A stretch of DNA of 63,737 nucleotides, counting the filler, from Rhizaria sp. SCN 62-66 (lineage: Eukaryota), in assembly GCA_001724265.1 (NCBI GenBank). It is 7 parts of 7 records of this genome, joined end to end, with 100 filler letters (N's around TTAATTAATTAA, not from the genome) between each part and the next. Parts side by side here need not be neighbours in the genome. Positions count along the whole stretch, not along the records: positions 39,108 to 48,352 come from MEDY01000576.1; 6 more parts are not named here. One strand, written 5' to 3'. The position numbers were made by a program, and so were the translations under genes. The notes below the pieces were generated by a model that saw only the letters and a list, made by a program, of their open reading frames with translations, was not told where the DNA came from and did no database searches. Within the stretch, counting starts at the first letter, position 1. The number at the start of each line of letters is the position of its first letter. Shown one piece after another: positions 1 through 57,809 of this stretch.

Positions 1-422
1 CTGGTCGCGGCCGTGGCTGCGCGCGCCCGCTCGTCGCTGCTGCAGGCGGGCTGGGTTCGTTGGCAGGCGCACTGCCGCGTGCACCGCGCGACGGCCGCGA
101 CGGCCACCGCGGTGCTCTCGGCGCGCGCGGGCGCCGCGGAGGCCGAGGCCGCCGCCGCCGAGGCTGCCGCGGCTGCGCAGGCGCAGGCGACCGCGCGCGT
201 CGCGGCGACGCAGGAAGCCACGCTCGCGGCGGTGGCGGCGGCCCGCGAGCGCGCGAGCAAGCGGCAGGTGCTGCTGGCGTGGCAGGCGGCGATGCTGCGC
301 GCGCGCGGGCTGCGGCAGCGCCACAGCGCGACCCTCAGCGCCGTCGCCGCCAACGGGCGCCGCACGCGGCTGCTCTCGGCCTTCGCGCTGTGGCGCTCCA
401 CGGCGAGCGGCAGCAAGGCCGG

Positions 423-454
<32 letters not shown>

Positions 455-3252
455 CCGAGGCCGCCGCGGCTGGCACGGCGCTGGCTGAGAGCGCGGCCCG
501 CCTGCAGGAGCGCGACGCCGCGCTCGCGGCGATGGAGGCGCTGCGTGCGCAGGAGCAGCGCGAAAGCCTAGCGCGCGCCGCGGCGGCCGCGGAGGAGCTG
601 GAGGCGTTCAAGGTCGAGCTGACGCGCGTCAAGGACTTGGAGGTGCTTGCGCGCGAGGCCGCGGCCACTGCGGAGCAGCAGCGGCGCGCGTACGCGCTGC
701 TGGAGGAGCAGGCGGCGCGGTCGCGCGAGGAGCTCGCGGCGCACGCGAAGCGCACGCAGGAGGCGTTGTTGCAGCAGGCGCTCGAGGCCGAGGAGGAGCG
801 GCGCGCGCGCGAGACGCAGGCGCGGCTCGAAGGCAAGCTGCGCGAGGACTCGGTGCGCGCCGAGGAGCAGCGCCGCGCGCAGGAGCTGCTGCAGCTGCAC
901 GCTGCGCGCGCCGCGGAGGCGCTGGCGGCGCAGCGGCGGCAGGCCGGCGAGGCGCTCAAGGTGCAGGCGCAGGTCGCGGCGGCCGAGGCGGCGGCGCGGC
1001 GCGCGGGCGACGAGTGCGAGCGGCTGCGCCGGGACCGCGCCGCCGTGGCCGCGGAGCAGGACGCGCTGCGGCGCGAGCGCGCGGAGGCCGCTGAGGCTGC
1101 GGCCGCCGCGCTGGCCGCCGTGGCGGCGCGGCGGGAAGACCAGGAAGCGCGAGCGGAGGCCGAGCGCGCCGCCGTGGCCGCCGAGCGCTTGGAGGCGGCC
1201 ACGGCCGAGCAGCAGCGCGAGCGGCAGCGCGAAGAGCAGCGGGACGCCGCGGCGAAGCAGGCGGAGCGGCAGCGGCGTCGCCAAGCGGAGGCTGAGGCCG
1301 CCGCGCTGGCCGCCGCCAAGGACGACCTGCGCCGGCAGCAAGAGGAGCTCGCGGCGGCCGCGCGCGAGGCTGAGGCCGCAGTCGCCGCCCGCGCGCGCGC
1401 CGCCGAGGCGGCCGTGGCGGAGCGGGCGCGCGCGGCTGCCGCTGAGGCCGCTGCGGCCAAGGCGCAAGTAGAGCAGCTGGCGCGGCAGCGCGCGGCCGAG
1501 GCCGAGGCGCGCGAGGCCGCTGCGCACGAGGAGCGGCTGCGCGCGCACCGCGAGCAGGAGCAGCGCCAGCGCTAGCAAGCCGCCGCCGCCGCCGAGGCCG
1601 CGCGCGCCGCGGAGCAGGAGCGTGAGCGAGCGCGCCGCGAGCGGGCCGCGCAGCAAGAGCAGGAGCAGGAGCAGCGGCGGCGGCGGCGCGCGGCAGCCGA
1701 GGCCGAGCTGGCGGCGGCGCGCGCGGCGCAGCAGCAACGGCGCGCGGCGCGCAGCGCGCGGCACGAGGACGAGCGGCACCGGCGGCAGCAGGCGCTGAGC
1801 GAGCTCCACCAGGAGCACTTGGAGCAGGTGCGCGCGGCGGCCGAGGGCGAGATGCTGCGTCTCAAGCGCGAGGCTGAGGTCGAGGCCGCGGCGGGCCGGC
1901 TCGACCTGCAGCAGCAGTTCCTGCGTGAGCAACGGCGCGCGGACGCGCGGCAGCTGGAGCTGGAGGCCGCGGCTGCGCGGCGGCAGCAGCGGGCCGAGGC
2001 CGCCGAGGCCGCGCTGGGCGCCGCACGCGGCCAGCTCGAGAGCGTGCGCGCGATCGTGCTGCGGGGGCAGGAGCAGCGCAGTGTGGCCGAGGCCCAGGCG
2101 CTGGCGCGCGGCCACCGCGAGGGCGCGCGGCGCGAAGACATGGACAACGACCGTGAGCAGCAGCGCTTCAGTAAGCAGGAGCAGGAGCAAGGACAGGAGG
2201 CTGAGCTCGATGAGGCGGTGAGTGTGAAGGCGGTGCTGGCGAAGCAGAACGCGCTTGAGCAAGAGCTTAAGCAGCTGCGCTTGCAACAGCAACAACAGCA
2301 GCAGCAATTGCAGACTGCGAGCTCAACCACGAGCTCGTCTCACTCTGCCGTGTCGAGTCGGAAGACTGTTGCGGGCGTCTTCGGCGACGACGACAGCGAC
2401 GACAGATTCGACGTGCTGAGTGACGCCGCCGTCAACGAGCTGGAGCTCTCTCGCGAGGAACGCGGCAAGCACCACAAGCAGTCTAAGGGCGGGCTCGATA
2501 TGCCGTCTAAGGGGGTCGGAGTCGGAGTTTGGGTTGCCCCGCACCGCTTCAGCACCACCACCACCACCAGCAGCAGCAGCTTGCAGCCACAGCAGCCGCA
2601 GCCGCAGCGTCGCGTGCCTGTGGTGTGGCACGGCGAGGGTACTCACGCTGACGAGCGCGACACGTACACTGCGAGAGCGACCGTTTCCAGCCAGCGCAAT
2701 GGTGGTCTCGACGACGACGATGATGGTGAGGACAGCGATTGCGAGAACGGCAACGGCTGCGGCGTCGGCCCTGGGGTGCGCAATAACGTTTACCACGTGG
2801 CGTACCCTCTGCCTCTCGACTCTCGGCCACAGCAGTCGCAACAAGGCACCTACGGCCACGGCCACGGTCACTCGGCCTCAGCTCCGGCCGCCCCTGCCTC
2901 GGCTTCGGCCGCCACTGTCCCGATGTCAGCCCACGCCTTTGCCCCCGCCCACAGCCATGCGCAGAGCCTCAGCGCGGCGCACGCAGCTGCGGTGGCTGCG
3001 GCGGCCGAGGCGGCGGCCGCGGCGGCGGCTGGCGGCGGCCGGGAAGTGAGCACCCTCGTCGCGGCCCGCGCTGCGCAGCGCCAGCAGCAGTACCAGCAGC
3101 AGCAACAGATCCAGCTGCAGCAGCAACAGGCCGCGGCGCGGGCTCTTGCAATGCGCCAGCAGCACCAGCATCAGCAGCAGCAGCAACCGCGGTTCCATTT
3201 TCCGGTGCACGTAGCGTCCCCTGACGAAACTATGGAAGTTCTCTACTCTTAA
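1..3252 (+). CDS. Long Ala/Glu/Arg/Gln coiled-coil protein with Sfi1-like W repeats near the N-terminus; 5'-truncated; reads through in-frame TAG 1573-1575
   Basis: ORFs 13..1575 and 1819..3252 share a frame. The only stop between them is TAG in CAG CGC CAG CGC TAG CAA GCC, and the EQRRAA-type composition is the same on both sides. The gene ends at TAA 3250-3252, where GC content falls. LLQAGWVRWQ, VLLAWQ and LLSAFALWR resemble Sfi1-type repeats (inference). Confidence 0.75.
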
Positions 3253-6828: not shown

Positions 6829-8817
6829 ATGGCGTCGCGCAAGCAGCTGAACAAGCACTACCCGATCGACTGGGAGCCGTCCCACGGCACGTTGAACCAG
6901 GCGTCCGGCTTGCACCCGCTGCGCGACCGCATCAACAGCGCGACGGGCGCGCTCACGGTCCGCTTCGAGCTCCCCTTCGCGGTCTGGTGCACCGCGTGTG
7001 GGGCGCTCAACGCGCGCGCGCAGCGCTACAACGCGGTCAAAACGCGGCCCAGCGCGCATAAACACGATGACGACGCGGCGCCGAGCGGGGGCAATAGCAG
7101 CAGCAGCAGGGATAGGAGTGACCGCGACCACCACAGCAACAACAAGAACTACGGCACCGACAACGACAGTGCAAGTGACCGCAGTGGAGAGCACCGCGAC
7201 ACCGCTCCAAAGACGGATCGCGAGCTTGACTTCTTTTACTCGACCCCCATCTGGCGCTTCACCATGCCCTGTGCGCACTGCAACGCGCTTTTTTCGGTCC
7301 AGACGGACCCGGGCGCGCACGGCGGCCGCGGCGACTACGTCGTGACTGCGGGCGCTACGGTCAAAACGACCACGCGCGAGGCCACTGTGGAGCTGGGGCT
7401 GGAGCCCGTGGTGGGAACAGCGAAGACCGCAGGGCTGACAGGGACTGAGTATCCACGCTCTCCTAGTTTTAGCAGCAGCAGCAGCGTTGCTGGCATCATC
7501 GGCCCGCAACTACAGTCGCGCTCAGATTAGCCACATTCAGCTGCAGACTCGCACGCCGCCTCTTCACCATCCTCCATTCGTGAAACAGCGACCGCCAGCA
7601 GCGCATTGTTGTCGTCATTATCAGCGTCGTCATCCGCGTCATCCGCACTGTCGGCGTATGACGAGCGCGACATCGTGGACTTGGTGGTCCAGCGCGATCC
7701 GCGCGGCCGCGAACTGCACCGCGAACGCATGCGCGCTGAGCCCCTGTACGCGGCCACGGTTGCGGCGCGGGACCGCCGCCGCGGCGAGGCCGGGGCCGCG
7801 GCAGTCGCGGCGCTGCTGCAGCTTGACCGGGACCGCCGCAGCGGCGTCGTGCCAGCGCCCGCGCCTCCGCCCGTGAACGCGAGCGCGAGTGGTCAGGGCG
7901 AGGTGCGCGATAGCTACAGCGCGTATTCCTGCGGCAATGCCGGCGCCAGCGCGGGCCTCGGCGCTCCCTACGACCGCGGCACGCGGAGTGACGGGCCATT
8001 CGATCGCGCAGCGCCGTCGGACAGCGCTGCTCTGCTCGAGGGGGATGGGCTGTTGGACCGGATGCGCGCTGCGGCCCGCGAGCGGCGGCGCGATGCCGTG
8101 GCGGTGGCCGCGCAGGCCAAGGCGCACGCTGCGCGCGGGGACTGGTGGGAGAGCGCGCAACGCCAATAGCAGCAATATTCGCAGTATCATGGCTACTATG
8201 GCGGCTCCGGGGCGGCGGCGAGCGGCGGCTGGGCGCGGGCGCGGGCGCAGGAGGAGGCCGCAGACGCTGCCGCGGCCGCTGCGGCGATGAGCACGAGGAC
8301 GGTCAGCACAGTGACAGCGACGACGCTGGCACCGGCTGAGACGGCTTTCGCGGCGACCGGGGCTGCGAGTTCGAGCGCAAGTGCGAGCGTGGGCGTTAAC
8401 TCAGTGCCGTCGGCAGCAGTTGTGGCGTTCGCGGGGGCGAGCAGTGCTGCTGGCGGCGGGAACGCGGTTCGGAAGGGCAGGATTGCTGTTGTGGTAAAGA
8501 AAAAAGAGCCTGTCGTAGTCGCTGCTCCTGCTGACAGCACCGGCGCTCTAGGCAGTGGTCGCAGCTCTGACAGCCGTGGAGTTGCTGTTGCTGCTGCCCG
8601 CGGTGATCCTGCCGTCAAGCTTGAAGAAATGAGGCGTGGCGACGTTGGTATCGACACGGCTCGCGGCTCTGCGACTGCAGGGGCAAGCAGCGGGAGCAGT
8701 CAGGTGCCTGCTGCGACAGCTGCTGTCCCTATTCCAACGGACGCCACTGCTGATGTCGCTCCCTGTGTTGATATCCGGGTTAAAGAAGAATTCAGTAACT
8801 TTAAGAAAGAAAATTAA
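6829..8817 (+). CDS. YJU2B: Saf4/Yju2-family splicing factor (CCDC130/YJU2B type), 662 aa if the two in-frame TAGs (7528-7530, 8167-8169) are read as sense
   Basis: MASRKQLNKHYPIDWEPSHGTLN..HPLRDR..VRFELPFAVWCTACG..RYNAVK..YSTPIWRFTMPCAHC..VQTDP..DYVVTAGA matches the CCDC130 N-terminal zinc domain. ORFs 6829..7530, 7606..8169 and 8287..8817 share one frame and are separated only by TAG. Ends at TAA. Confidence 0.85.
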
Positions 8818-9545: not shown

Positions 9546-9645
9546 NNNNNNNNNNNNNNNNNNNNNNNNNNNNNNNNNNNNNNNNNNNNTTAATTAATTA
9601 ANNNNNNNNNNNNNNNNNNNNNNNNNNNNNNNNNNNNNNNNNNNN
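9546..9645. other. Artificial contig linker
   Basis: 44 N + TTAATTAATTAA (stops in all six frames) + 44 N, identical at all six junctions. Confidence 0.98.
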
Positions 9646-19083: not shown

Positions 19084-19183
19084 NNNNNNNNNNNNNNNNN
19101 NNNNNNNNNNNNNNNNNNNNNNNNNNNTTAATTAATTAANNNNNNNNNNNNNNNNNNNNNNNNNNNNNNNNNNNNNNNNNNNN
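19084..19183. other. Artificial contig linker
   Basis: Same 100-nt N/TTAATTAATTAA/N spacer. Confidence 0.98.
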
Positions 19184-29663: not shown

Positions 29664-29763
29664 NNNNNNNNNNNNNNNNNNNNNNNNNNNNNNNNNNNNN
29701 NNNNNNNTTAATTAATTAANNNNNNNNNNNNNNNNNNNNNNNNNNNNNNNNNNNNNNNNNNNN
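29664..29763. other. Artificial contig linker
   Basis: Same 100-nt spacer. Confidence 0.98.
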
Positions 29764-30977: not shown

Positions 30978-33335
30978 TCACTACTCGCCCTCGTCGACCT
31001 CGTCGATGATGCCCGCGGCGGCGCGCGCCTCGGCGGCCGCGGCCTCCTCCTCGGCCTTAGCGCGCGCCTCCTCTTCCTCGCGCTCGCGCTGCGCACGCGC
31101 GCGCGCGCGCTCGTCTGCGCGCGCGCGGCGGTGCTCGCGGGCTGCGCGGCGCATCAGCGCCACGGCGTCCTCGACGAAGCCCATGAGCTCGGCGGCGATG
31201 TAGTTGGTCGCGGCCACGGCCTCGGGGTCGACGCCCGCGAGTAGCAGTTCCAGCGCCGCGGGCGCGTCGCGCGCGGCCGGGTCCGAGCCCGTAGTCGCGG
31301 TGTACGGGTCCGCCGCCGCCGCCGCAGTCGCCGGGTCGGCTGCCGCGGAGGCCAGGCTCGCAGCTTCGCGCGCGGCGGCCTTACGGTCGCGCTTGAACTT
31401 GCGCACCGCGGCCGCCTCGACCGCCTCCTGGTTCAGCGCGGGGGCCCCGCTGCCGTCCACACCCGACTGCTGCTGCTGCTGCTGCTGTTGCTGCTGTGCG
31501 TGCTTGGCGAGCGCTTGCTGGACCGCGGCGGCCTGCGCGGCCTCGAGCGCGCGCTCCTGCTCAACCACCGCGGTGGCAAAGTGCACGCGCGGGGAGAAGT
31601 CCTCGATGCGCCGGATGAGGTCGTCGTCAAACAGCGCGCGCATCTTGAGCCAGTCGGGCCGGTTGTCCGAGTCGGCGATCTGCGCCTGCGAGTAGCCCAG
31701 CAGGTACAGTAGCGCCTGCACGACAGGGAGCGGGCCGCGGAAGACGTTGTAGCCGCGCATCTCGAGCACCTGCTGGCGCAGCGAAAGCACGAGCGCCTGC
31801 CGGTGCTCGAACGCCGCGTCCTCGCGCGCGACGGCCAGCGCGCCGCCCTCGCCGTCCTCGCCCTCTTCGCCCTCGGAGGCGGCCGCGGGGACGGCGCCCG
31901 AGGCGGCGGCCGCGGCGGCGCGCTCGCGGCGGGTCTGCTCGACGAGCTGGTCGATCTCATCCCGGCGCGCGTCCTCGTCCTTGGGCACAACGCCCGCCAG
32001 CACGGCCGCGATGGCGGCGCGCGCCTTGCGCTCGCGGCGGTACGTCTCGCGGTCGATGCGCAGCAGCGTGTCCTGCAGCAGCTGCGCCAGCCGCGTCGCG
32101 TAGCCCACCTGCTCATCCGACAGGCGCCTGCCCTGCCCCAGCGTGTCGAGGCACACTGCGAAGGCAAGCTTGCGCTTCGAGAGGCGCGAGATGACCGTCT
32201 CTTCGTCGGCCTTAGCCTTGGCGACGGCCTCCTTGGCCTCGCGCGCGGCGCGCTCCTCGTCGCTCTCGACGGGCTTAGCAGCCTCGGCGGCGGCCTTGAC
32301 GGCCTCGGCCTCGGCCTCGCGCGCGTCGCGCTCTGCGCGCTCCTCCTCGGTCATCTCCTCGTCCTCCTCGGCGCGCACGCGGCGGCGCTCCTCCTCCTCC
32401 TCGGCCGCGGCCAGCTTGCGCTCCTCCTCGTCGGCCGCGCGCTGCTCCGCCTCCTCGGCCTGCTGCTCGCGGAGCTCGCGCTCGCGCTCCTCGGCCTCGT
32501 CGAAGGCCGCGTCCTGCAGACACGACTCGTAGTGCACGCGCACGGCCAGGTAGCAGCCCGCGTCGGGCAGCCCGAAGAGCTTGACCTGCTCGGCGCGCGC
32601 GCCCTGCAGCACGTTGGGCACGAAGACGGTGCGCGGCACCGGCGCGGGCTTGGGCAGCAGGCGCGAGACGTACTCGCCGGTAGCCTCGTCCAGGACCTCC
32701 TCGTACTCGTCCTCGACCGGCTCCTCGGGCTCGAACAGGTCGTGCGTGACGCCCTCGCCGAAGCTCAGCCGCTCCTTGAGCATGTCCACGGGGCCCGCGC
32801 CGGCGGACGAGGAGGACGACGCGTCGCTGCTGTTGCTGTTGCTGCTTTCTGGGACGGCGGGGGCAGCGGCAACGTACTTAAGGTAGTCGCCAGTAGCGTC
32901 GCGCTCGTAGCCCGAGGCCTCGCCGCCGGCGGCGTCGTAGGGGTCGTTGCGCAGCTCGGCGATGTACACGGCCGAGGCGTCGGTGGCATCGCGCAGCAGC
33001 TCACAGAAGCGCTGCAGCAGCCCCTCAAGCGAGTGAGCGCCGCGCAGGAAGGCGGTGAAGTGGTCCGCGCGCGCGGTGGCGTCGGCCGTCGCGGCCGCGG
33101 TCGCCGCCGCGGTGACCTCGGCCTTGCGCGCCTCAGCCTGCGTGTGCGCCTCGTCGCGCGTGGCCAGCGTGCGCGTCTTGTGCTCCGCACGCGCCTTTGC
33201 GGCCTTGGCAGCGACGTAGTCGCGGAGGTAGTGGGCGAGGAACTCGACCTGGTCCTGGGGCTGGCGCAGCACAACCTGCGTGAGGCCCTCGGACAGCACG
33301 TCGCCCACGTTCTCTTTCAGGTACGCAGCGTCCAT
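30978..33335 (-). CDS. DPY30-domain axonemal protein, radial spoke protein 2 (RSP2)-like; ends ...GAG TAG TGA
   Basis: The N-terminal Dpy-30 motif is MDAAYLKENVGDVLSEGLTQVVLRQPQDQVEFLAHYL. It is followed by a GAF-like segment (ASAVYIAEL, YLKYVAA, GEGVTHDLF, FVPNVL, GCYLAV, VCLDTLG) and Glu-rich coils. The ATG at 33335 follows a pyrimidine tract and CAG. Confidence 0.7.
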
Positions 33336-39007: not shown

Positions 39008-39107
39008 NNNNNNNNNNNNNNNNNNNNNNNNNNNNNNNNNNNNNNNNNNNNTTAATTAATTAANNNNNNNNNNNNNNNNNNNNNNNNNNNNNNNNNNNNN
39101 NNNNNNN
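39008..39107. other. Artificial contig linker
   Basis: Same 100-nt spacer. Confidence 0.98.
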
Positions 39108-39408: not shown

Positions 39409-42400
39409 ATGAGCAAACGAGGTCATGGTACCTTGCCATCCAACGAGCCGTTGCCACGCCGTCGAAGCTTTTCAGAGCACCCTAAAGCGGCGTAGCTGGA
39501 GGAGTCAACCGCTAGTACGTCGCCAGCTATGACAAATGCAGTCTCCAAAAGCTCGTCCCCTTCTACAGTGCTTGGACCAGTCGTGGAGGTGCCTTTGGTG
39601 GTCCACACTGTGTCCTACCGCCCAGGCCACTGGTCTCGTACGCCCCGGCGCGCGCTCTCCACGCGCGCATCCATGACGACCACCAGAACAACTCGCAGCA
39701 GCAGTTTGGCTACCTCAGACAGCACAGCGGACGGGACAGGGGTTGCCGCTGCCCCCGCAACCGTTCCTTCCGCAGCGGCGACTTTGGCGCAACTGCACAT
39801 GAACACGCAAATCCAGCCCTCAGTGCATCGCAACGCCACGCACATCGAGCTCGAGCACGAGTCTCTCGCCGACGCGCGCTTTAACGACCTGGCGAACCCG
39901 GCCTCGTTTGTGTTCTCGTCGCAGTCCGCGCCGGCTCCCGCGCCGCCGCGCGCCGTGCGCTTCACGCTGCTGCCCACGGTCACCGCGGTCGGCCGCTAGA
40001 CCCAGCTCGGCACCGCCGCGGCCGCGCGCCCCGAGCCCGCGTCGCACGCGCTGCGGGCGTGCACGGACTCCAACGCCGTGGCGGGTGCGGCGCTGCTGCG
40101 GCGCGGCGGCAGCGCGCGCGGCCCGATGATGCGCCGCGCCCCGCCCGCGCGCGCGCAAGGTACGGTCGCGGCGCTGACCACGCCCGCGAGCTTTGGCGGC
40201 GTTGCCACGGGCCGCGGACCGAGACTCTTCTCCATGCGCCCGCGCTCCGCCGCCGCGCCCCATGAGGCATCGGCTACGGCGCGCGCCGGCCTGGGGCCCG
40301 GAACCTATGACGTACCCGCGCCCTCGGACGCGTTCCTCATCGCCGCGCAGCGCGAGGGCGCGCTCCGGCCGCCGCGCCGCGCGCACGCCGCGGCCGAGCC
40401 CGGGGGCCGAGTTGGCGTGGCCGCCGGCATGGGCGCGGGCGGCGACGCACACTCCAGAGCAGGAGGCGGAGGCGGCGGCGGCGGCGGCGGGGGCCAGGGT
40501 GAAGTGTCGCTGTGGGCGACGGCGTTGGGCGCGCACGCGGTCGTGGCGGCCCCGCCCATGGGCACGTTTGCGCGCACGGCGCGCTGGTCCGGCGAGGGCG
40601 CGGCGCTCACTGCGGCAGATAACTCAGAGTACGTGAGAGTGATACAGCGCAAACACACTGTAACTGACGGATATTTAGTATTTGCATCAGAGCACCTTTT
40701 ATATTGAATTCAATGTGTGTATATTCTTATTTTCTGTTTTTTCTTCTCTCTGCTTTTAGACTGACGACGACGACGTACGTCCCGACATTGCCGCCCAAGT
40801 CCCTGTCGCCGTCGCGCCGCCCCGCCACCGCGCGCGCCCGCACCGCCTTCAGCGGCGGCAACTTCAGTCGCAGTGGCGGTCTCCGTGCGGGCGCCGCGGC
40901 CTTGCGTGCTCTGCGGACGCAAACCGACGGCTTCGCGGCCGCCGCGCTGGCCGAGTGCCTCGACGGCGCGCTCACGGCCCACGACGGCGACGGCATCGGC
41001 GCCAGCTACGACGGCACTGGCTCTACTGGCACTGGCACTGGCTCGACTGACGTTGGTTTGACTAGCGCTGGCGCCGGCGCGGTGGTCGGTCTGGACTACC
41101 GGTCGGCGGACGAGCTGTGGCAGCTGGCCGACGCGGCGGACGCCGACGCCGCCGCGGCCGCCGCGCGCCCGCTCGCGCTCGGACTGGGCGTCGCGGCCGC
41201 GATGGAGCGCGAGCGCGAGCGGGCCCGTGAGCGTGAGGCGCGCGAGGCCCGCCGTGGGCAGCGCTCGGTGCGCGGCGGCGGCGGGGCAGCGTGGCGACAC
41301 GCGCTCGCAAGGAGCAACGGTGGCAGCACTGGCGGCGTGGGCGGCGCTGCGGAGGCTGACGCGGAGGAGGCGGATGTGGAGTTTAACGGCACGCTTGCGA
41401 CGCGGTACATGGGCCCCACGCCTGCGTGCGTGCACAGGGAGTCGCCGCCGCGACAGTGGCAGCGCCCCGGCACCGCACCAGAACATGCACATGCACACGC
41501 GCATGTGCATGCTCGTCGCGCCGCTAAAGCAACGGCCGTCCCGGCCACAGCAGCAGCGACGGCGCCAGCGGCGAGCGCAGGCGATTCGGAGCCCGATGCC
41601 CGTGCCACCGCAGCGCACGCGGACGCAGACGCAGACGTAGACGCAGCAGCAGCGCCGCCGGTGATGACGACGGCGGCGCTGGCCGCGTCGGTCGCCGCCG
41701 AGGCGAGCGCGTTGGCCGCGGCGGCGCTGAGCGAGGCCGCGCTGGCCGACGCCGCCCTGCGCACCAGCACCGGCAGCGGCAGCGGCAACGGCTACGGCAA
41801 CGGCCACGGTAGCGGCAATGCGCCCGCGCTGGGGCTAGGGCTGGGTGGGTTCGTGCGCACGCTCGACGGCCGCATCGTGCACGCCTCTGGCCGCGCGGGC
41901 GCCGCGCGCGCGCACATGTCGGCCCGCGGCGCGGCGCGCGCGCTGGAGCACGCCGTGGCGGCGGCGCAGCGCGAGGCGCGCGTGGCGCGGGCGGCGACAT
42001 GGGCGCCCTCGGCCGCGCAGACGCGTCTGCTGCGCACGCCACACGCTGTGCCCATGCGTGTTGACCGGCCCTCGGACCGCTACCCCTCGGCAGCGCAAAC
42101 CGCCGCTGACGGCGACGGCGACCGTGGCAGTGGCAGTGGCAGTGGCGGTGCGTTTGCGGCCGGGCCCCGCACGGCGACGGTGCGGTTCGCTGAGAGCCCG
42201 CACGGCCGCCTCGGCTGGGGCTCGTCTCACTCAGGCTCTGCCAGGCTCTCTGGCTCTGGCTCTGGCACTGGCGCTGGCGCTGGCGGCGGTCCTGGTGCGC
42301 GGCACGCTGGCTGGGTTGTGGGGCAGCTGCCCGCGGGGGACCGCATCGCAGACCGGCTGGCGGCGCTGCCGCGCGACGCGGACGACGGTGACACGCGCCA

Positions 42401-42884
42401 GCGGCAGCGGGCGCAGTCGGCGCTCGTGCGCAGGCTGTACAAGACCGAGCCGCTGCCGCCGCCGCTGGCCCCGCGCGCGCCGGTCGACTGGGCCCTCCCC
42501 AGCGCGCGCGCTGACAACACCGGCTTCAGCCGGTCCGGCACCGCAGCAGCAGCTCCGATGACTGCGGTTTATCCCGTGGCGGAGACCGGGCCTGCGGGGG
42601 AGGACGCGGCCGCGGCCGAGGCTGAGGCACTGGTGCCGCGACGGCGGTCCGAGCTGCGCGCGCTGGCCGAGGCGGCGGGGCGCGAGCGCCTGCACGAGCA
42701 CCTCGTCCGCCACGGTGACGCTGAGCCGCACCGCGCGCTCCAGGACGCGATCACCGGCGGCGGCCGCGCGCAGCACAGGCAGGGCCAGGGCCAGAGCCAG
42801 AGACTGAGGCAGCGTTCGGCGCGCGGGGGCAGGCCGGCGGCGGCGATGAGCGCTGAGCTGGACGACGATTACGGCCTGTTTTAA
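39409..42884 (+). CDS. Hypothetical two-exon protein with one STPG/SHIPPO-like motif (LGPGTYDV); two in-frame TAGs (39493-39495, 39997-39999)
   Basis: Exon 1 is 39409..40628, the phase-2 intron is 40629..40759 (GTACGT...TTTTAG), and exon 2 is 40760..42884, ending at TAA. Splicing joins ORFs 40078..40707 and 40704..42884 in frame. ORF 39529..39999 is in the exon 1 frame and is separated from it only by TAG. An alternative start is the ATG at 39529. Confidence 0.6.
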
Positions 42885-43065
42885 ACAAAACAATTGTTGG
42901 ATACCTAAACATTACTTTTACGAATAAGTTTACATAGACAATCGACGAATACATATATTGTGATTTTTTTTTAAATGATTAAAGTCGACTCTATGTATTC
43001 TTACTATGTAACATGATATTTTCTTCAATAGTGTTTGCAGGACGCTTTCAGATCACTGCAGAGGG

Positions 43066-44814
43066 TCAGATATTCTCACGCCCGGCCTCGCCCTCGTCGT
43101 CGTAGTCCCAGGGCCCCTCGTACTCGCGCTTGAGGTGTCCACCCTGCTGTCTGGCGAACACGGCCGGCGCAACGCACACCACGCCGGCCAGCGCGGCGGC
43201 GAAGCAGTGTCCGATGACCGGGGAGTGCGCGGTGAGCACCAGCCAACCCGCGGCGGCAAGCAGCGCGCTGGCGGCAGCGAACGCCCGCGGGCGCGCGCGC
43301 TCGAGCACGGCCAGCACGGGCGGGAGCCCCGCAAAGAGGACGCACACGGCGAAGAGCAGCGCGAACGCGTGGTCGGCGTCGCGCGGGAGCCGGGAGCAAA
43401 GCGCGACGCTGGCGCAGACCACGAAGGTGAGCGCGACGCTGCCGCGGGACAGGGTCGCATCGAGGCCATCCGGCCGCACAGCCGCACTCGCAGTCTCGGT
43501 CGCACTGGCGCTGACTCTGGCAGTCACTGCACTGCTGACGTCAGTGGCTGCAAATGCCCTGTTCGCCAATGCGTTATTTGTGTTGACCCTAGGATTCGCG
43601 GTGGCTTTGCCGCGACGACTGCGATCATGGGTCTCTCTCGCAGCCTTACCGTCAGTGCTTGTGTTGACTCGAGGATTGACTCTCGGAATCGCGGTCTCTC
43701 GTACAGCCTTACCGTTGTTGCTCTTGGTCTTCGTCACAGTGACGAGCCCTGACGCATCCATGTCCGTCGCATCGTCATCGCCGTCACTGACACGATCTCC
43801 ACCACCCACGTCAACGCCATCATGCTAAACGCCGTAGCTGACACTCGGACTCGCATTCGCAACATCATCATGTGCGAGCGCATGCTCGTCCTGCCCCGGC
43901 TGCTGCGGCGGCGGCGCCGAGTAGTCGTACGCCGCGACGTGCAGCACGGCCGCCAGCGCTGTCGCGCCCAGCACGGCCCGGTCCGAAAGCGCGCTGGCGA
44001 GCTCCCCCATCGCCGGCGCCAGCAGCAGCAGCGCGAAGGCCAGCAGCGCGAGGCGCCGCGACTGGTGCTTGACCGCGCGCCGCAGCTCCTCGCGCGCCGC
44101 TGTCGCCGCCGTCGCCGTCGCCGCCGTCGCCGCTGGGGCTGCGGCTGCGGCGGTCAGAGCGCGCCAGCCCCAGACGAGCGCGAGGGTGCCGAGCGCGAGC
44201 GCGGCGAGTGAGACCGACACAATGGCGTGCGGACCGGCGGCGCGGACGGCCGCGGCGGCGGTGCAGAGCGCGTGGCCGAGCGGGGAGGCCGGGAGATCGC
44301 CCAGCAGCAGCGGGGACAGCAGAGGCAGCGTCGTGGACCGGTGCGGGCAGGAGAAGGGCGGCAGCAGCGACGTGGGCTCCGCGACGAGGGGACTCGCGGG
44401 CGCGAGCAACGAGAAGAAAGCCGCCAGCCAGAGCGCGACCGAGGAGAGGCGGCAGGCGAGCGGCAGGGCGCGGAACATGAGCGCGCGCAGCGGCCGGCGG
44501 CGCGCGGGCAGAGTGGCGTTGGTGACCAGACACGCGAGAAAGGTGTCGTCGGTGTGGTTGTCTGGGTACGGCTGCCGCGCGTATAGGATCTTGCGCCACG
44601 GAGGGCGCGGTCGCGGCTGTGGCGCAACAGCATCCAGAATAGTCCCAGAAGCAAGAGCAGCGACAGAGGCAGTTGTTGTGACCCTCTTGCGGCTCGCTGC
44701 AGTGACCGTCGTTGTTGTCACATCCGCGGACGCTCGGTCCACTGATTGCGCAGCCGAGGCTGCTGGCTTGCGGCATCGATTCATTGGCGCCAATGCGCCG
44801 TAAAATGTGCGCAT
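43066..44814 (-). CDS. PIGC: GPI-GlcNAc transferase subunit PIG-C/GPI2, 582 aa if TAG 43827-43825 is read as sense
   Basis: The N-half has WRKILYARQPYPDNHTDDTFL, LAPAMGELASALSDRAV and LHVAAYDY. The C-half has CASVALCSRL..HAFALL and KREYEGPWD. Both halves are in one frame with a single TAG between them. Ends at TGA. Confidence 0.9.
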
Positions 44815-45492
44815 CTGTGACCTAACAAACAGGCCTGTCCGAGCGGTAGTTTGCGCTCAGCACTGCGTCTGTGTGTTGATGCGGGTCTGACCAACGGCTC
44901 GAATCGACAGGAGAGCACCTGATCGCAGAGGTTGAGCAGTTATAAAAGAGAAATTGAGATATGTGGGTAAATAGCAGTGTTATTACTGTGGGTAGTCGTC
45001 ATAGAGCAAACAACGATGCGGGTATACCGCATATCGAGTGGTTTGAAGATCGTGATCAAGCTGGGCGTGGGGCGACGGGGAAGGGAAGCGATTGATTTTT
45101 TGTTGCTTGATCTAGCGAATCCCATCGCTTGCGATGGAATTTGCACTCGTAATAGAATGCTACATGGCGCATATAATGTTTCTTTATTTTCAGTTTTCAC
45201 TGCATGTCAATCCACACCGCTGTAGACGTGCATGAAGATATGGCGTGACCACTTCCTCATCAAGGTGGGACTCTTCCTGTTCAATCCTGGTTCATTCATT
45301 ACCAAAGTCAAGTCTTTGACTTTAATCCCGGTGGACCACACATTAGCTAGATGAATAGTGTTACTTTTCACAAATTGTATCTGAACTGGCCTTGCTTTAA
45401 CATGCCAAATCACTCCTCTTCACTTCCCCAACCGTTTGATTTCTCACGCGCCACTGCTTTTCCATCGCCGCCTCGCAGACCCTCTTACTGCG

Positions 45493-46433
45493 ATGTCCAA
45501 GCCGCGCACGAGCTTTACGCCCGCCGACCTGATCGCGGGCCTTACGCCCGACTACCTGTTGGGCTTGATCGACGATGTCAAGTGGCGCGACTCGACCTCG
45601 AAGGCCGTGCAATGCGCGCTCAAGCTCGCTGGCGCCGTCATCCAGGACCACGGGCTGCTCTCGGACGAGTCGCGCAAGGAGACCGTCGCCAGTACGTCTT
45701 CCTGTTCCACCATACCACAACTAACGCCGCAACTATCCTATTGCATCGCGCGCAAAGCTCTAATCTTCATCAATCATTCGCTGGTCCTACAACTCTGATA
45801 TCGCACTTCTTCTTACACACATTGCTATCTCTGCGGACTTACTCTGCTCTCACTGTCCGTACAGACTTCAGCGCCGCCGCGGGCCTGCTGGGCACGGCGC
45901 GCCGCGTGTTCCGCTTTATGCGCTGGACGCGTTTCGCCTACGACATGCCGTCGAACATCGCGGACAAGGACCCGATGATGTCGGCTCTCAAGGCGCTGCA
46001 CTTCACCTCGAACCTGACCTCGTGCTTGGTCGAGGACGTCACCACGCTCGAGCGCCTGCGCCTCGTCGACACGGGGCTGCCCGCGCTGGCGACCGTGGGC
46101 AACCTCGCCTGGCTGGGCGAGTCCGCCACGGGCTTCCTCATCACGCTCATCGTCGTCAAGAAGCAAGCCGACGCCTACAAGGCCGCCTTCAAAGCCTGGC
46201 GCACCGCTCTGTCCTCCGGCAAGCTCGAGGAGGCGCGCTCGCTGGGCGCGATTGCGTTTGCGCAGTGGGTCAAGTACCACTTCTCGCTGCTCACGCTCGT
46301 CAAGTGGCTCGGCGAGACCGTCGCTGCCTCGCACGACAACGGCTACCACACGGCGTCCAAGGCCGCCATCGCGGGCTCCCTCGTCTCGGCCGTCGTGTCC
46401 ACCTACGCGCAGAGCGCCAAGTTCTGGAAGTAA
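45493..46433 (+). CDS. PEX11: Peroxisomal membrane protein PEX11 family, two exons
   Basis: Exon 1 is 45493..45691 (WRDSTSKAVQCALK), the phase-1 intron is 45692..45864 (GTACGT...ACAG), and exon 2 is 45865..46433 (GTARRVFRF, NLAWL, GSLVSAVVSTY..W). Ends at TAA. Confidence 0.8.
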
Positions 46434-48352: not shown

Positions 48353-48452
48353 NNNNNNNNNNNNNNNNNNNNNNNNNNNNNNNNNNNNNNNNNNNNTTAA
48401 TTAATTAANNNNNNNNNNNNNNNNNNNNNNNNNNNNNNNNNNNNNNNNNNNN
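48353..48452. other. Artificial contig linker
   Basis: Same 100-nt spacer. Confidence 0.98.
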
Positions 48453-50171
48453 GAGGCCGCCGCCGCCGAGGCCGCCCAGCCCCGCGCCAGCGCCGGGACC
48501 CGCGGCCGCGGCCTCGGCGGCGGCGGCAGCGGCGGCGGCAGCGGCGGCGGAGAGAGAGAGTCCGATTTCGCGGAGGATGGGCTGCACGACCGAGAGGATG
48601 CCGCGCCCGACGGCGGCGGCGAGCTGCCCCGCGATGAGGAAGGCGGCGTCGCGGTGGGCCGGGATGGCCAGCTCGGCCGACACGGCCGCCGCCACGGGCG
48701 CGAGCGCGAGGCGCGTGAAGGCCGCCGGGTTAAGCCGCGCGACCGTGGGCGTGAGCCAGAGTACGGTGTGGCGCACCAGCGGCGCCTTGTGGTCGCGGTA
48801 GAGCGTGATGATGTGGCAGACCTCGCGGTAGCGCTGCAGCGTGAACTGTGGCGCCGAGGTCACCAGCTCTCCCAGCACCAGGAAGGCGGCGTGCAGCGCC
48901 GGCACGGGCGGCGCCTTCTGTGTCAGCTGCGTGACCACCTCATCGAAGAGCGAGAGCAGGCAAGAGTATCGCCACTGCGGGTCGCGGTGGGCCAGCAGCG
49001 CGAGGACCACGCGCAGGGCCTAAAATGGAGTGGACGAGAATATAACACAACAAATTACATAGATATAACATCATTTGTGTGCAAAATGATATGGCATAAA
49101 GTAAAACAATGAAATTTGATCAAGACGATGTAAAATTTGCGATGAAGCATTGCTAGGGACTGTTCATATGATGTCTGTTCTTCATATTTTTGTGGTGTGT
49201 CCCAGTAAACGTACCTCGACGGAGGCTTCGCGCAGGCGCGGTGAGGGGTCGCGCAGGGGCGTCCAAATGCGCGCCACAAACGTGGTGATGTGCGACGTGA
49301 AGTGCGTGGGCGTGCACAGGGCCAACGCCTTGAGCACCAACACCGAGGCCAGGCGCCGCCGCTCCGAGCTTGTGCCGCCGCTGCCGCCGCCGGAGCCGCT
49401 GCCGCTGCCGCCGCCGCCGGAGCCGGAGCTTGAGCCGCCGCTGCCCGAGGACGGCGGCTGCAGCCACTCAAGCGCTTCCTTGATGTGGAAGTGCGTGAAC
49501 TCGACGGTGAGCGCGCCGCCCGCGCGCGCCAGGTTGGCCATGGTGCGCGCCGCCGAGACGAGCACAACATCGGCGACTGAGTCCGCGTGGTGCAGCAAGA
49601 TGCGGAAGCAGTTGGCGAAGCGCACAATGACGGTTTCCTGGAAGTCAGACTTGAAGTTGATCATCTCGGCGATGAGCTGGAGCCCGCCGAGCCGGTGGTC
49701 CGTCAGCGGCGAGTTGGTGAGGTCGAACACTCGGCCCGCCAGGTCGGCGATCAGGCGCGAGGCGTCTTCGGCGCCCTTGTCGCGCACCTCGTCCTCGACG
49801 AACGCGCGCAGGGCCCGCGCCGCGCGCGCGCGCACGTCGGGCGAGGCGTGCTTGAGGCCGCCGTCGAAGAGGCGCGTGAAGGTCGCGGTGATCACGGCCG
49901 GAGATGAAGCCATCTTGCTCGCGCCGCTGCCGGTCCCCGCGCCGGAGCCCGCGCCCGCGCCCAGGCCCATGCCCATGCCCAGGCCGGGGGACGACAGGCC
50001 AGAGAGGCCGGAGAGGCCAGTGAGGCCGAGGCCGAGGCCGGGAATGGCGCCGACGCCGGACGACGACGATAAAGCGGCCGCGGCGGCGGCGGCAGCGGCG
50101 GCAGCGGCGGAGGAGCCGCCGCCCGCGGTGGGGGGCAGCGCGGCGCCCGAGAGCGCGCCACTGCTGCTCAT
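48453..50171 (-). CDS. TOR: TOR kinase N-terminal HEAT region, 3'-truncated
   Basis: Exon 50171..49215, phase-0 intron 49214..49020 (GTACGT...TTTTAG), exon 49019..48453. Motifs are VRFANCFR, EALEWLQ, RRLASVLVLKALA..PT.F and IWTPLRDPSPRLREASVE|ALRVVL (mTOR VWDPKQAIREGAVAALRACL). Confidence 0.9.
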
Positions 50172-51275: not shown

Positions 51276-54200
51276 ATGTCCGCCCCCGCCTCCTCCGCCG
51301 ACCCCACGGCGGCAACGACCGCGCCGCCCAGCAGCGGCAAGCCGTCCGCGTCCCCACGCAAGAAGAAGATGAACCCGAAGCGCCGCGACCTGCTGGCGCA
51401 CCTCTCGCGCCTCGCCGCCGAAGTCAAGACAGCGGAAGACTTGGAGCTGCGCCGCCGCGAGGCCGCCGAGCGCCGCCGCCAGCGCGAGGAAGCCGAGCGC
51501 GCCGCGTACGACAAGCGCTGCCGCGCGGAGGAGCTGGCGCGGCTGGGCGAGGAGGCCGCGGCGGACGACGACTACCTGCAGGACCGCGTGGGTCAGCTCG
51601 TGTCGGAGCAGGAAGACTCGCTGGCGCTCACGCAATGGCACCGATACGTCGGTTGCAATCCGCTGCCAGACGTGCTCAAGGAGCGCGAGCTCAGCGCCTT
51701 TCACTCGCTCTGGCGCGCCTCTGCTGCCGAGGCCGCGGACGCCCACCTCAACGCACACTATTCAAGCAGCAGCAGCAGCAGCAGCAGCAGCTGTAGTAGT
51801 TCTGAGAGCGGGAGCGCCGCGGCGCGGGCCGGCGCGGCGGTGCTGCCGACGGTGGAGAAGTGCCACCTCGCCGAGAGTGTGGTGGCGCTCGCGCAGGTCG
51901 TGCAGGGCGACGCGCTGCAATGGCGCGACCTCGCCCACGAGCAATGGTACCACGACTACGCGCGCCGCCTGCGGGCCACCGCGCGCGACACGATCGATCA
52001 GCTCACGCGCCAGCTCGTTGACTCCGCGCAATCGCTCGACTCGGCCGCCGCAGCCACCGCGGCCGCCTCCGGCAGCGGCAGCGGCGCGGCCGCGGGCGGC
52101 GCGGCGGGGGCCGGCGGCGGCGCGGGCTCCGGCGCCAACGGCGGAGCCACCGGGGCCGCTGAGGGGGACGACGGCAGCACCTTCACGCGCTCCTACGGCA
52201 CGCCCTCGCTGGCCGTGGGCTTTTGGGCGCACGCGCGCGTGCTCAAGAACAAGCGCGCGAAGCAGATCGCCTTCAAGAACTTGAAGCTGTGGATCGACCT
52301 GCCCGCGGCGCTGCAGGCGAGCCGCACGAGCATCCGTGTCACGCACACCAAGTCGTTCAACCCGCTCTTCGACGAGTATCCACCCGACTCGACCGTGCTT
52401 GCTGCAGACGTCCTTGCTGCGGCGAAGGCGGGCGGCCCAGGCGGCGCGCGCGGGCTGGGCGCGACGGCCACTATGGGCAGGGCGGGGGTGACCACGAACA
52501 CGTTCGGCAGCACCGCCACCTTCCCCACGCCCCGCACCTCCCGCGACATCCCCTCCGCGGGCAGCAGCCACAGCGCCTCCTGCGGCGGCCTCGGCGGCAC
52601 GGGCTCGCTTGGGCTGGCGGGCGCAGCGGGCGTGACGGCGGCGCAGGCGACCGAGGCCGCCGCGGCCGCCGCCGCCGCCGCGGCCGCCGCTGCTGAGCGG
52701 GAGGAGGAGGACGCCGCGGCCGCGCTGACAGCGGCCCAGGTGCTGGGCTACTCGGTCACCGACGGGCTCGACTGGGGCCTCTCGCCCACCACGCCCGTGG
52801 TTCCACCGGCCCTCAACGCCTTCCCGGGCGTTGCCGGCAACGGCACGCTCGCCATTACCGCCAACCTCGGCAGTACGCTCTCGGCGACCGTGGGCGCGGG
52901 CGCGATCAGTGCCGGCGCGAGCGCGGGTGCGCAGGCGCAGCAGGCGGCGCTGGCGGCGGCGTTATCATCCGCCGACGCCCTTAAGGCGCCCGCCTTCGCC
53001 GCGGGGCTCAAGATGCCCCCCGGCTTCCTGTCGCCCGAGTACTTCGTGAGCGTGGGCGGCGTGGTGACCGTCGAGCAGCTCGCGCTGCCGCCGCCGCCCA
53101 AGCGCTGGGGCTCCAAGGGGCCCGTCATGCGCGAGGTACGCCGCAAAACAAGGAATCCATGATTTACCTCGACATATGATTGCTATTTGCACATTGCTTA
53201 TATATGTTTATCTGGTGGTGGTGGTGGTGACTCGTTTCTTCTTTCTTCCAATTGTTGTCTCACAATTCTCTCGTTTCGCCATTGTTGTTCTCTCCTTTTG
53301 TATTTCCTTGTTATCATCCTGTTGTTTGTCATCGGCTTGCACAATCCAGGTGGCCTCACTGACGGAGCCGCTGGTGCGCGTGCCGTACCCTGCCGCGGCG
53401 GAGGAAGGCAGCGCGGCCTCGACCTCCCAGGGCCCCGTCAAGCTCTCCTTCGCGCTGCCGCCTCACGTGGTGCTTGCGGAGAAGGCGGCGCCGCGGTTGG
53501 CGACGTGGAGCGCCGAGCACCGCGCGTGGCGCAGCGACGGCATCGCGTTGCTCGGCTACGACGCCATCAAGCGCATGGTGCACGTGCAGGTCGTCGCGCT
53601 CGCGCCCTTCGCCATCATCCAGCCCCGCATGCTTGACTACCCCTACAAGAGGTACGCGCAAGCGACAAAAAAGCGCAAAACATTTAATTTTCCACTTAAT
53701 TCACTGCTAAACTCACTACTATTTGTGTTGTCTCTTGCATTATTTTTTGTGTGGGTGCGAGTTTTTGTTCTATGATAAGATTCGTGCTTATTTATTTTCT
53801 TTTTCCGCCCTCTCTTTGTTCCATCCCACTCAAATTCGTTTAGCTGGCACCTCGCCCCCGCGGGTCCCGGCTGCGCCGTTCTGACGCTGCAGACGCCGCG
53901 CCTGGCGCTCAGCTTCCTAATCTCGCGCTCGGCCGTGGTGCTGACTGCGCCGCGTCTGCCGGAGCTGGCGCCGCTGCTGGACCGCCCCATGGAGCCGGGG
54001 CTACTGCTCTACCGCCTGCGCGCCAGCGGCGTGAACCTCATCCCGCGTGCCGCCGACGGGCCCCGCGCGCGCAAGAAGGTCAAGGAGGAGGGCGCCGAGC
54101 TGCGCGCGCACGAGGAAATCGCCACCATCGCGCCCCTCTGCGAGGTACGGGTTATCGAACTCGCAAATAGCTATAAAACGTCGGATATATGCATATATTG

Positions 54201-55762
54201 AGCTAACATCCGGCAAGTCTCTTGCCGAAATGAAACACATTTATGTGTCTATTATAATAAGGGTATAATTCATTGGCACAATCTCACTTTCCCTAATCTG
54301 TTCGCGTTGGTTGCTTTCTCTGCATTTCCAGGTCTCCAACCTGTCGTGGAACACCACTCGGGACTCGCGCACGTGCCTGGCCCGCTACCGCCTCGCGCCC
54401 GAGGCCCGTCGCGCGACAATCCCGCTCTCCGCGGGCGCCTCCGCGCTGGCCTCGCCGGCGCACGGCCAGAGCGCGGGGCTGACCGCGGCCGCGATCGCGG
54501 CGGCGGGCGCCGACGACGCCGCCGTGGCGGCCGCGGCGGGGCAGGCCGTGTCGGCCTCGGCGGCCGCCAAGAAGGCGCAGCGCAGTGCCGGCGGGGGCGG
54601 CAAGGGCCGCGCGCGGCGGCAGAAGGGCGTGGTTGACTTCGATGATGACTCGCTGCTCGACGGCGACAGCGATGATGACGACGACGACGACGACGGCGCT
54701 GGTGGCAATCCCGACGGCGACGGCGACGACGGCGGCGACGACGATGGCAACGACGCAGACGGCGGCAACGGCGAGGACGAGGACGCCAACGCCGCCGCGG
54801 CTGCCGCAGCGGCCGGAGGGCTGGTGTTCGATGATGCTACGGTCAACAGCGACCTCGCAGTCGCGGCGAGGCTCGCGCACACCGAGGAGGCGCGCGCGCG
54901 CGTGCAAGTACGTTTATCTTCATGTTTCTCCGCAAAATGTATATTATTGTGTTTTACTTAAAACGAATTTATGTTTTGTAATCAAATTGTAGATGTAACT
55001 CTCTGTATAAGATCTCACAGCCAATTTTCCTCATCTTTTGTTTTTCTCTCCACTCTCGTCTAGGCCGCCGTGGCCGCGGGCGAGCTGTCCCCGGCCGACG
55101 CCGAGGCGGCGCTGGCACAGGCGACGGAGGCGGCCGAGGGCGGCTGGCGCGTCGTCTCGTTGAGCGCGGAGAAGCAGTCGGTGCTGCTGGCGACCGAGAG
55201 CGCGTGGTCTGCGCAGATGCCGCCGCTGCGGTCGGCGCACGTGTCGCTGCGCCGCGCCGTGTGCGAGGACGTGGCTTACGAGGGCGACGCCGTCACCGTG
55301 CTCGTTGAGGCCGTCGCGGACGGGGAGGCCGCCGTCGCCGCGCTCAAGGACGAATATGCCAAGTACGTGCCTCGCTACGAAACAAACTTGACTTGCAATA
55401 TTAATCTCGTATATGAACACAATGACGTTGAATGACATCAGAAAGACACAAAGACCCAAATGTATTTGTTCTATCAGTCATATGTGTTTTTAATCACTCA
55501 CTTCAACTTGCTGATCTGTTCCCTTTATGTACGTTGTTTCTTCTGTTCCCTCGCGCGCAGGACCAACTTCCCCGACGTCAAGGCGGAGCTAGACGCCGCC
55601 GAGGTCACGCTGAGCCGCGACAAGGCTGAGCTGGCGGCCGCGCTCGACGTCGCGCAGCGCGCGTTGGGCGAGAAGATGGAGGAGGCTGATGCGAGCACGC
55701 TGATGCTGCAGCAGAACATCGTCGCGCTCTTTAACGTGCTGCGCCCGCTCTCCTTCTGCTAA
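51276..55762 (+). CDS. DNAI7: Axonemal dynein intermediate chain 7 (CASC1/CFAP94/IC97), six exons
   Basis: Exons are 51276..53135, 53350..53651, 53844..54144, 54332..54907, 55064..55362 and 55561..55762. All five introns are GTACG...YAG and phase-consistent. Motifs are QWHRYVGCNPLPDV..ELSAFHSLW, GGVVTVEQLALPP, WSAEHRAWRSDGI, DYPYKSW.LAP, SGVNLIP and C-terminal LRPLSFC. Ends at TAA. Confidence 0.85.
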
Positions 55763-57709: not shown

Positions 57710-57809
57710 NNNNNNNNNNNNNNNNNNNNNNNNNNNNNNNNNNNNNNNNNNNNTTAATTAATTAANNNNNNNNNNNNNNNNNNNNNNNNNNNNNNNNNNN
57801 NNNNNNNNN
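57710..57809. other. Artificial contig linker
   Basis: Same 100-nt spacer. Confidence 0.98.

Follow-up and report, generated by a model that had tools for sequence, protein, structure and literature searches.

An in-frame TAG within a PIG-C gene points to UAG as a probable sense codon in an uncultured GC-rich eukaryote

TAG is probably translated in the organism behind a 63,737-base stretch of DNA from the assembly deposited as Rhizaria sp. SCN 62-66 (GCA_001724265.1), with TAA and TGA as its terminators. This stretch, hereafter the window, consists of 7 contigs joined by spacers (N44-TTAATTAATTAA-N44) at 9546-9645, 19084-19183, 29664-29763, 39008-39107, 48353-48452, and 57710-57809, and the evidence centers on a gene for PIG-C (GPI2) located on the fifth contig (window 39108-48352; MEDY01000576.1). 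The PIG-C coding sequence occupies 43066..44814 on the minus strand, from the first in-frame ATG at 44814-44812 (a second lies at 44784) to a TGA at 43068-43066, and contains a single internal stop, a TAG at 43827-43825, which is codon 344 of the conceptual protein P0001 in the context GGC GTT TAG CAT GAT. A sequence-only reading of this DNA had proposed that PIG-C needs read-through of the TAG to be complete, and the strand, frame, coordinates, and motifs that it gave around the TAG are all as described. Its proposal is supported by a GPI2 domain split across the TAG, by the coding character of the insert in which the TAG lies, and by inserts translated in the same loop of relatives. PIG-C is the only case in the window in which homology, beyond composition, indicates that a TAG is internal to a gene.

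The halves of the gene on either side of the TAG are, judged by profile matching, complementary parts of one GPI2 domain. Translating TAG as glutamine (NCBI table 15) opens the frame, and a Pfam scan of this product, the check that the sequence-only reading had called for, finds one TAG-split GPI2 domain (PF06432; E 1.4e-33, 117.1 bits versus a cut-off of 24.4). Scored separately, the halves reach 71.1 bits before the TAG, with the best stretch covering positions 1-63 of the 270-position profile, and 50.2 bits after it, over positions 160-270. The motif WRKILYARQPYPDNHTDDTFL lies 5' of the TAG and ASVALCSRL and KREYEGPWD lie 3' of it, all in one shared frame. Along the minus strand, the gene begins with a non-conserved N-terminal extension (44599..44814) with a GC content at third codon positions (GC3) of about 0.5-0.6, which is similar to that of the insert. 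This is followed by a conserved N-terminal half (43921..44598; WRKILY...YDY) with 3 clear hydrophobic segments and a GC3 of 0.83-1.0, a hydrophilic, lineage-specific insert in a loop, with 156 codons counting the TAG (43453..43920, between YDY and LSRGS), and a conserved C-terminal half (43069..43452; ASVALCSRLP...GPWDYDDEGEAGRENI) with about 4 hydrophobic segments.

Alignment with 11 homologues placed invariant columns on both sides of the TAG: L91, D99, F106, P281, and L286 precede it, and those that follow include L476, S483, L486, S488, R489, and L490 as well as G581, P582, W583, and D584. The same alignment confirmed the earlier description of the TAG as lying within a non-conserved, in-frame insert. 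A crude Kyte-Doolittle scan, made with no topology predictor, gave hydrophobic stretches at 130-160, 207-231, and 268-291 before the insert and at 468-491, 493-521, 524-549, and 544-570 after it, with a mean of -0.72 for the insert, which thus sits between two blocks of hydrophobic segments. This pattern predicts a multi-pass membrane protein, as is characteristic of the PIG-C family. The gene shares with known PIG-C/GPI2 the full profile, the W-R-K-I-L-Y..Q.Y.DN and ASV.L.SRLP motifs, the C-terminal GPWDYD, and hydrophobic segments flanking the loop. It differs from them by its in-frame TAG, by an N-terminal extension of about 60-70 residues, and by the size of the loop after YDY, where most homologues have about 10 residues in place of the 156-codon insert. 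In P0007 and P0008, which are distant relatives, this same loop holds an uninterrupted insert of roughly 150-170 residues, and both share the C-terminal ...GPWDYDD.GE.G[RK]ENI with the PIG-C of the window. P0012 also has a long insert there and P0004 one of about 35 residues, such that inserts of comparable size among the PIG-C homologues are restricted to P0007, P0008, and P0012.

The locus appears to be one intact, transcribed gene for subunit C of the glycosylphosphatidylinositol (GPI)-GlcNAc transferase, with its function in the complex assigned by homology. The sequence-only reading had asked whether a separate copy exists. No second PIG-C was found in the 63.7-kb window, and a search of 1.84 billion representative proteins gave no match better than E 1e-30 apart from the two halves of the locus itself, which prokaryote-style gene callers split at the TAG into P0003 (N-terminal) and P0002 (C-terminal) in public protein sets. 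A homologue search with the C-terminal half returned only itself, and one with alignment A2 added just a single 230-aa protein to the gene's own two halves. Even for the closest PIG-C relatives, identity does not exceed 44%, and this holds over the C-terminal part alone. A search of a Protein Data Bank copy turned up no solved PIG-C structure, and no partner subunits of the GPI-GlcNAc transferase complex were found within the window.

The TAG at 43827-43825 is real in the DNA and is no assembly slip. A 1,992-nucleotide (nt) contig covering 43261-45252 in X3, a DNA run from another study, bridges it with 0 differences, as does a contig covering 43334-43911 in X4, a run from a second outside study that we regard as DNA, given its cover of intergenic stretches and of the neighboring gene's intron in unspliced form. 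A contig covering 43731-44050 in X6, a library labelled RNA-Seq cDNA, also bridges the TAG with 0 differences and is both unspliced and unedited. The metagenome contig L001 is letter-identical to 43264-45252, TAG included. Because the same TAG is found in contigs of X3, X4, X6, and L001, it is no rare allele. A CAG in its place, which the sequence-only reading had named as an observation that would count against it, was seen in none of the runs.

Transcript evidence came from X6 and from X7, a polyA RNA run. X7 has pieces in the PIG-C region at 42836-43167, 44033-44191, and 44407-44648, which bear on silence of this copy, a point that the sequence-only reading had named as counting against it: as far as contigs can show, PIG-C is transcribed. 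X6 carries the neighboring gene in spliced form and has a depth of 0 in intergenic bins. The one contig from a cDNA-labelled library that bridges the TAG, that of X6, retains the segment that an mRNA lacking the TAG would be missing, with the qualification that X6 is flagged as "probably DNA".

Spliced removal of the TAG would make recoding unnecessary, and the introns of this genome provide a direct comparison. The reference intron is GTACGT...CCGTACAG at 45692..45864 (plus strand; 173 nt, GC 0.47), in a neighboring gene that runs from an ATG at about 45494 to a TAA at 46431-46433. It is absent from a 1,079-nt contig of X6 and retained in the DNA runs X3 and X4. Six candidate introns with a GTACGY donor and a pyrimidine tract lie at 40629-40759, 49020-49214, 53136-53349, 53652-53843, 54908-55063, and 55363-55560, and the intron type of the genome was derived from these six look-alikes and the one spliced example. 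All 7 have an AG/GTACGY donor (the slash marks the splice site), a length of 131-214 nt, a GC content of 0.31-0.47, a T content of 0.30-0.44, a YAG acceptor, and a pyrimidine fraction of 0.60-0.95 in the acceptor tract. The GTACG donor and pyrimidine tract cited by the sequence-only reading are thus real features of this genome, and its further statement that the insert lacks both held on inspection of every relevant site. The 5 GT sites of the insert located 5' of the TAG (GTTGCG, GTCCGA, GTGTCA, GTCAGC, and GTTTAG) include none that resembles GTACGY, and the 20 nt preceding each of the 31 AG sites 3' of the TAG have pyrimidine fractions of only 0.30-0.60.

It is therefore very unlikely that the TAG belongs to an unusual in-frame intron or other excised segment with non-canonical or very weak splice sites. 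In favor of excision, the GC (0.60) and GC3 (0.47-0.63) of the insert are below those of its conserved flanks, most homologues have only about 10 residues at this loop, and X7 has no listed contig over 43434-43742, although this reflects absence of cover only, with a depth of almost nil for X7 and X6 in that bin. In addition, of the 7 introns (six candidates and the verified one), 4 have lengths that are multiples of three, and two of the GTACG-type candidates contain an in-frame TGA, at 53160 and 55433. The likeness between insert and introns ends with a GC below that of neighboring exons and a length divisible by three. The insert, unlike the introns, has neither donor nor pyrimidine tract, has a T content of 0.16, is 2-3 times longer at 468 nt, is codon-periodic in the phase of the gene, and is retained in the cDNA-library contig of X6, the same run that carries the neighboring gene in spliced form. 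P0007 and P0008, moreover, have translated inserts of comparable size here. The insert does not belong to the intron type of this genome.

Codon periodicity of the translated type, in frame, extends on either side of the TAG and covers the 63 nt immediately beyond it. A test of base composition by codon position gave a chi2 of 74.4 (p 5e-14) for the insert in the gene's own phase, whereas all 7 introns were aperiodic in this test (p 0.11-0.87). At codon position 1 the insert resembles trusted genes, with 0.48 G and 0.04 T, and the correlation of its pattern with theirs is 0.62 in phase 0 but -0.30 and -0.31 in the two remaining phases. The three frames of the insert contain 1, 2, and 13 stops, and an internal repeat (GKA.RET, NPRVNT) is kept in frame. 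G is the first base in 17 of the 21 codons that make up the 63 nt from the TAG to the following in-frame ATG (43761), and the observed periodicity chi2 was reached by 0 of 5000 shuffles, with the caveat that simple sequence rich in GAY and GGN can mimic such periodicity. The N-terminal extension, with its low, insert-like GC3, indicates that translated but non-conserved stretches of PIG-C can have such a composition.

We relied on position-specific composition because a codon-usage log-likelihood proved a weak classifier: it scored the insert and the N-terminal extension near zero and confused a coiled-coil gene with its antisense frame, and a flank test built on it also picked the in-frame TGAs that lie within candidate introns. 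A first flank test by GC alone was uninformative.

Within PIG-C, a GC3 of about 0.5-0.6 in the non-conserved parts contrasts with 0.83-1.0 in the conserved parts, and codon bias follows constraint very sharply inside this single gene.

Four further in-frame TAGs were found in the window, all on the plus strand and in coding-like frames, spread over two of the contigs. One at 1573..1575 lies in a long coiled-coil open reading frame (ORF; 1-3249) in the context CAG CGC TAG CAA (QRQR-TAG-QAAA). Two fall in a YJU2B-like gene (6829-8817), the first at 7528..7530 in its C-terminal extension and the second at 8167..8169 in a Gln-rich run (CAA TAG CAG CAA). The last, at 39997..39999, is in exon 1 of the gene upstream of PIG-C on the same contig, whose frame, by coordinate reading, runs across the candidate intron 40629-40759 into the ORF 40668-42884. 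A contig of X7 at 39752-40007 was not counted as bridging this TAG because it extends only 8 nt beyond it. The 100 codons following the TAG are periodic in phase 0 for all 5 in-frame TAGs (p 0.004 to 5e-14, GC 0.57-0.81), while those following a terminal TAA or TGA are periodic for none of 17 (p 0.1-0.8, GC 0.29-0.52).

The ends of genes show the complementary pattern. No plain TAG was found among 17 gene ends, a small sample from our own gene models, and the sole TAG at any gene end is in an 809-codon gene with a Dpy-30 motif, where a TGA directly follows it (GAG TAG TGA; 30978..30983, minus strand). TAA stands directly beyond the Pfam domains of EF-Ts and the C1 peptidase (Peptidase_C1), and TGA ends PIG-C at its conserved C-terminus. 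At conserved C-termini, TAA and TGA are true terminators.

The in-frame TAGs are followed by CAT GAT, CAA GCC, CAG CAA, CCA CAT, and ACC CAG. C directly follows 4 of the 5 in-frame TAGs versus 2 of 17 terminal TAA or TGA codons (Fisher p 0.0093), and with C at 0.24 of first codon positions in trusted genes, the probability of at least 4 in 5 is 0.013. TAG-C may be a context of weak termination, and the decoding of UAG may still be sensitive to context. These observations also bear on another possibility, that TAG is merely leaky in a favorable TAG-C context, by programmed or tolerated read-through, and still terminates genome-wide under an unchanged code. In addition to the excess of C, this explanation would account for TAG being rare and restricted to non-conserved, low-complexity stretches, and three of the TAGs are followed by CAA, CAG, or CAT, which recalls UAG-CAR-YYA, the read-through motif of plant viruses. 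The full CAR-YYA motif, however, follows the TAG at 0 of the 5 sites, the sample is five sites, a plain TAG terminator is absent from the 17 gene ends, and making an essential multi-pass enzyme subunit solely by low-level read-through would come at a high cost. We consider leakiness under the standard code quite unlikely.

Several observations weigh against the translation of TAG as a sense codon. TAG is rare, with 5 in roughly 13,000 codons of high-scoring ORFs by our own tally and 0 in the 6,724 codons of eight trusted genes, which include the mTOR-like, myotubularin, and EF-Ts genes. The common codons CAG, GAG, AAG, TCG, and TAC are each one step from TAG, and the finding that only TAG occurs in frame is weaker than it appears because nonsense mutations in a GC3-rich genome mostly yield TAG. 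None of the 5 TAGs is at an alignable conserved column, and therefore homology neither proves their translation nor gives the residue. Homology in the YJU2B-like gene ends at residue 179, before the first TAG, and the stretches that follow the TAGs outside PIG-C match no Pfam family. The contrast in periodicity between TAG and TAA/TGA is not fully independent because the 17 ends were partly recognized by the fall in GC. The insert is atypical of this genome's genes in its GC3 and its codon-usage score, the contig of X6 that bridges the TAG comes from the run suspected to be DNA, and the polyA run has no listed contig over the insert. No tRNA gene of any kind, no Rfam match, and no eRF1 was seen in the window, and for this reason the decoding machinery is unseen. 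That the 7 contigs come from a single organism is an assumption based on composition and intron type only.

Some of these same points would be expected if TAG were still a stop, with PIG-C a nonsense allele or young pseudogene, or a gene in two pieces whose C-terminal half starts at the ATG at 43761. The rarity of TAG and its absence from the trusted genes, the bias of nonsense mutations toward TAG, and the lack of decoding machinery in the window all fit this explanation, and under the standard code the ORF ends at 43825, exactly where the public callers separated P0003 from P0002. However, strong codon periodicity runs through the 63 nt that separate the TAG from this ATG, which is unexpected for an untranslated spacer, and both halves of the gene keep their high GC3, all invariant residues, and an unshifted frame over 1.7 kb. 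Reinitiation after an ORF of 340 codons is not known to be an established route in eukaryotes. The four other in-frame TAGs in about 20 genes would imply an implausible share of broken genes, and these roughly 20 genes have no frameshift and no in-frame TAA or TGA outside introns. A broken or split PIG-C is thus unlikely.

On the sense-codon reading, the PIG-C polypeptide can be completed only when the ribosome inserts an amino acid at UAG, within the long, hydrophilic, lineage-specific loop predicted to separate the fourth group of membrane helices from the fifth. The most likely cause would be that UAG is no longer a terminator and is decoded as a sense codon, with UAA and UGA left to end genes. 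UAG would be read either by a dedicated tRNA(CUA) or by a near-cognate tRNA aided by the C found directly after 4 of the 5 TAGs, and eRF1 would presumably have lost its recognition of UAG. For the inserted residue, glutamine is a guess with about an even chance of being correct, made from the 2 of 5 TAGs that lie in Gln-rich runs, with Leu, Glu, or Tyr as alternatives. A frame that is open under table 15 is in itself no evidence that the organism uses that table.

The code of the window is probably a UAG-only code of a known kind. One such code is reportedly found in the oligohymenophorean ciliate PL0344. Ciliate macronuclear DNA is unlike the window, which has a coding GC of 0.7-0.85, multi-gene contigs, and GTACGT introns. 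UAG-only nuclear codes are described for Iotanema spirale, with UAG as Gln, and for the rhizarian exLh, with UAG as Leu, both of which keep UAA as the dominant stop (PMC5304391). These resemble the window in having only UAG in frame within genes and UAA and UGA at their ends, and in belonging to poorly known or uncultured protists. In exLh, 384 in-frame UAGs are distributed over 71 genes, and many of them fall at positions where Leu is conserved (PMC5304391), whereas about 20 genes of the window contain 5 in-frame TAGs, with 0 at a conserved position. Phyllopharyngean ciliates read UAG as Leu or Gln, prefer UAA as a stop, and have identified suppressor tRNAs (PMC11687900); in the window, by comparison, no suppressor tRNA was found. 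The ciliate cases share with the present one the decoupling of UAG from UAA and discovery by mining of metagenomes.

Nuclear codes in which UAG and UAA differ in meaning were once held to be nearly impossible and are now known from only a handful of lineages (PMC5304391, PMC11687900). Our full-text literature search found, among the articles it listed, no GC-rich, non-ciliate UAG-only case of this sort. It is possible, although we would not call it probable, that the window represents an independent further nuclear code, with UAG alone turned to sense and caught early in the process, in a probably flagellated, GC-rich, uncultured eukaryote that has no close relative among sampled organisms. 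The early stage is part of this tentative reading, and would be reflected in the continuing rarity of UAG, in its restriction to loops and tails that are disordered and non-conserved, and in the preference for a C directly after it. Decoding would have begun as tolerated near-cognate read-through, with a dedicated tRNA arising later. If true, a further GC-rich, non-ciliate case would be an independent data point on stop codon capture. A codon that is still rare and context-dependent would be especially useful, because the reassigned codon has already reached saturation in most described cases, and an early stage would offer a natural snapshot of the capture. There is also a practical consequence: because standard callers split genes at TAG, as in P0002 and P0003, eukaryotic bins will be mis-annotated unless their code is tested.

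The window DNA is eukaryotic by its composition, its Pfam content, and its spliced GTACGT...CAG intron. GC is 0.7-0.85 in coding stretches versus 0.25-0.45 in intergenic stretches, and the Pfam families present include mTOR, myotubularin, EF-Ts, C1 peptidase, Casc1, Dpy-30, YJU2, and GPI2. Bioreactor and wastewater runs of several studies repeatedly contain the stretch, and the eukaryote of such metagenomes from which it comes is uncultured, rich in GC, and has spliceosomal introns. The named best matches to PIG-C are scattered over unrelated groups (Paulinella, Blastocladiella, Cladosiphon, and a bicosoecid). Among metagenome contigs, L001 is the sole one of the same organism, with the other 10 loci being relatives at 42-44% identity. 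No relative was present in the genome contig collection searched, and the ESM Atlas returned generic HEAT-repeat clusters only, which were of no help with taxonomy.

The two conserved N-terminal segments of the YJU2B-like gene are separated by about 60 hydrophilic residues, inserted in frame (7045-7225, plus strand), where human YJU2B has no insert. The tail of the gene is very long and non-conserved. Proteins of this genome seem prone to large in-frame inserts of low complexity.

On the minus strand at 57810-63737, an open frame of 1,976 codons has mTOR_dom as its sole Pfam match (E 1.4e-16) and zero homologues in a word-indexed protein search. This frame may encode the N-terminal region of a very divergent or insert-laden TOR kinase. 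In the gene neighboring PIG-C, a contig of X4 differs from the window at 9 positions over 45890-46127, where X6 and X3 agree with the window, which suggests that the X4 sample contains a second strain or allele.

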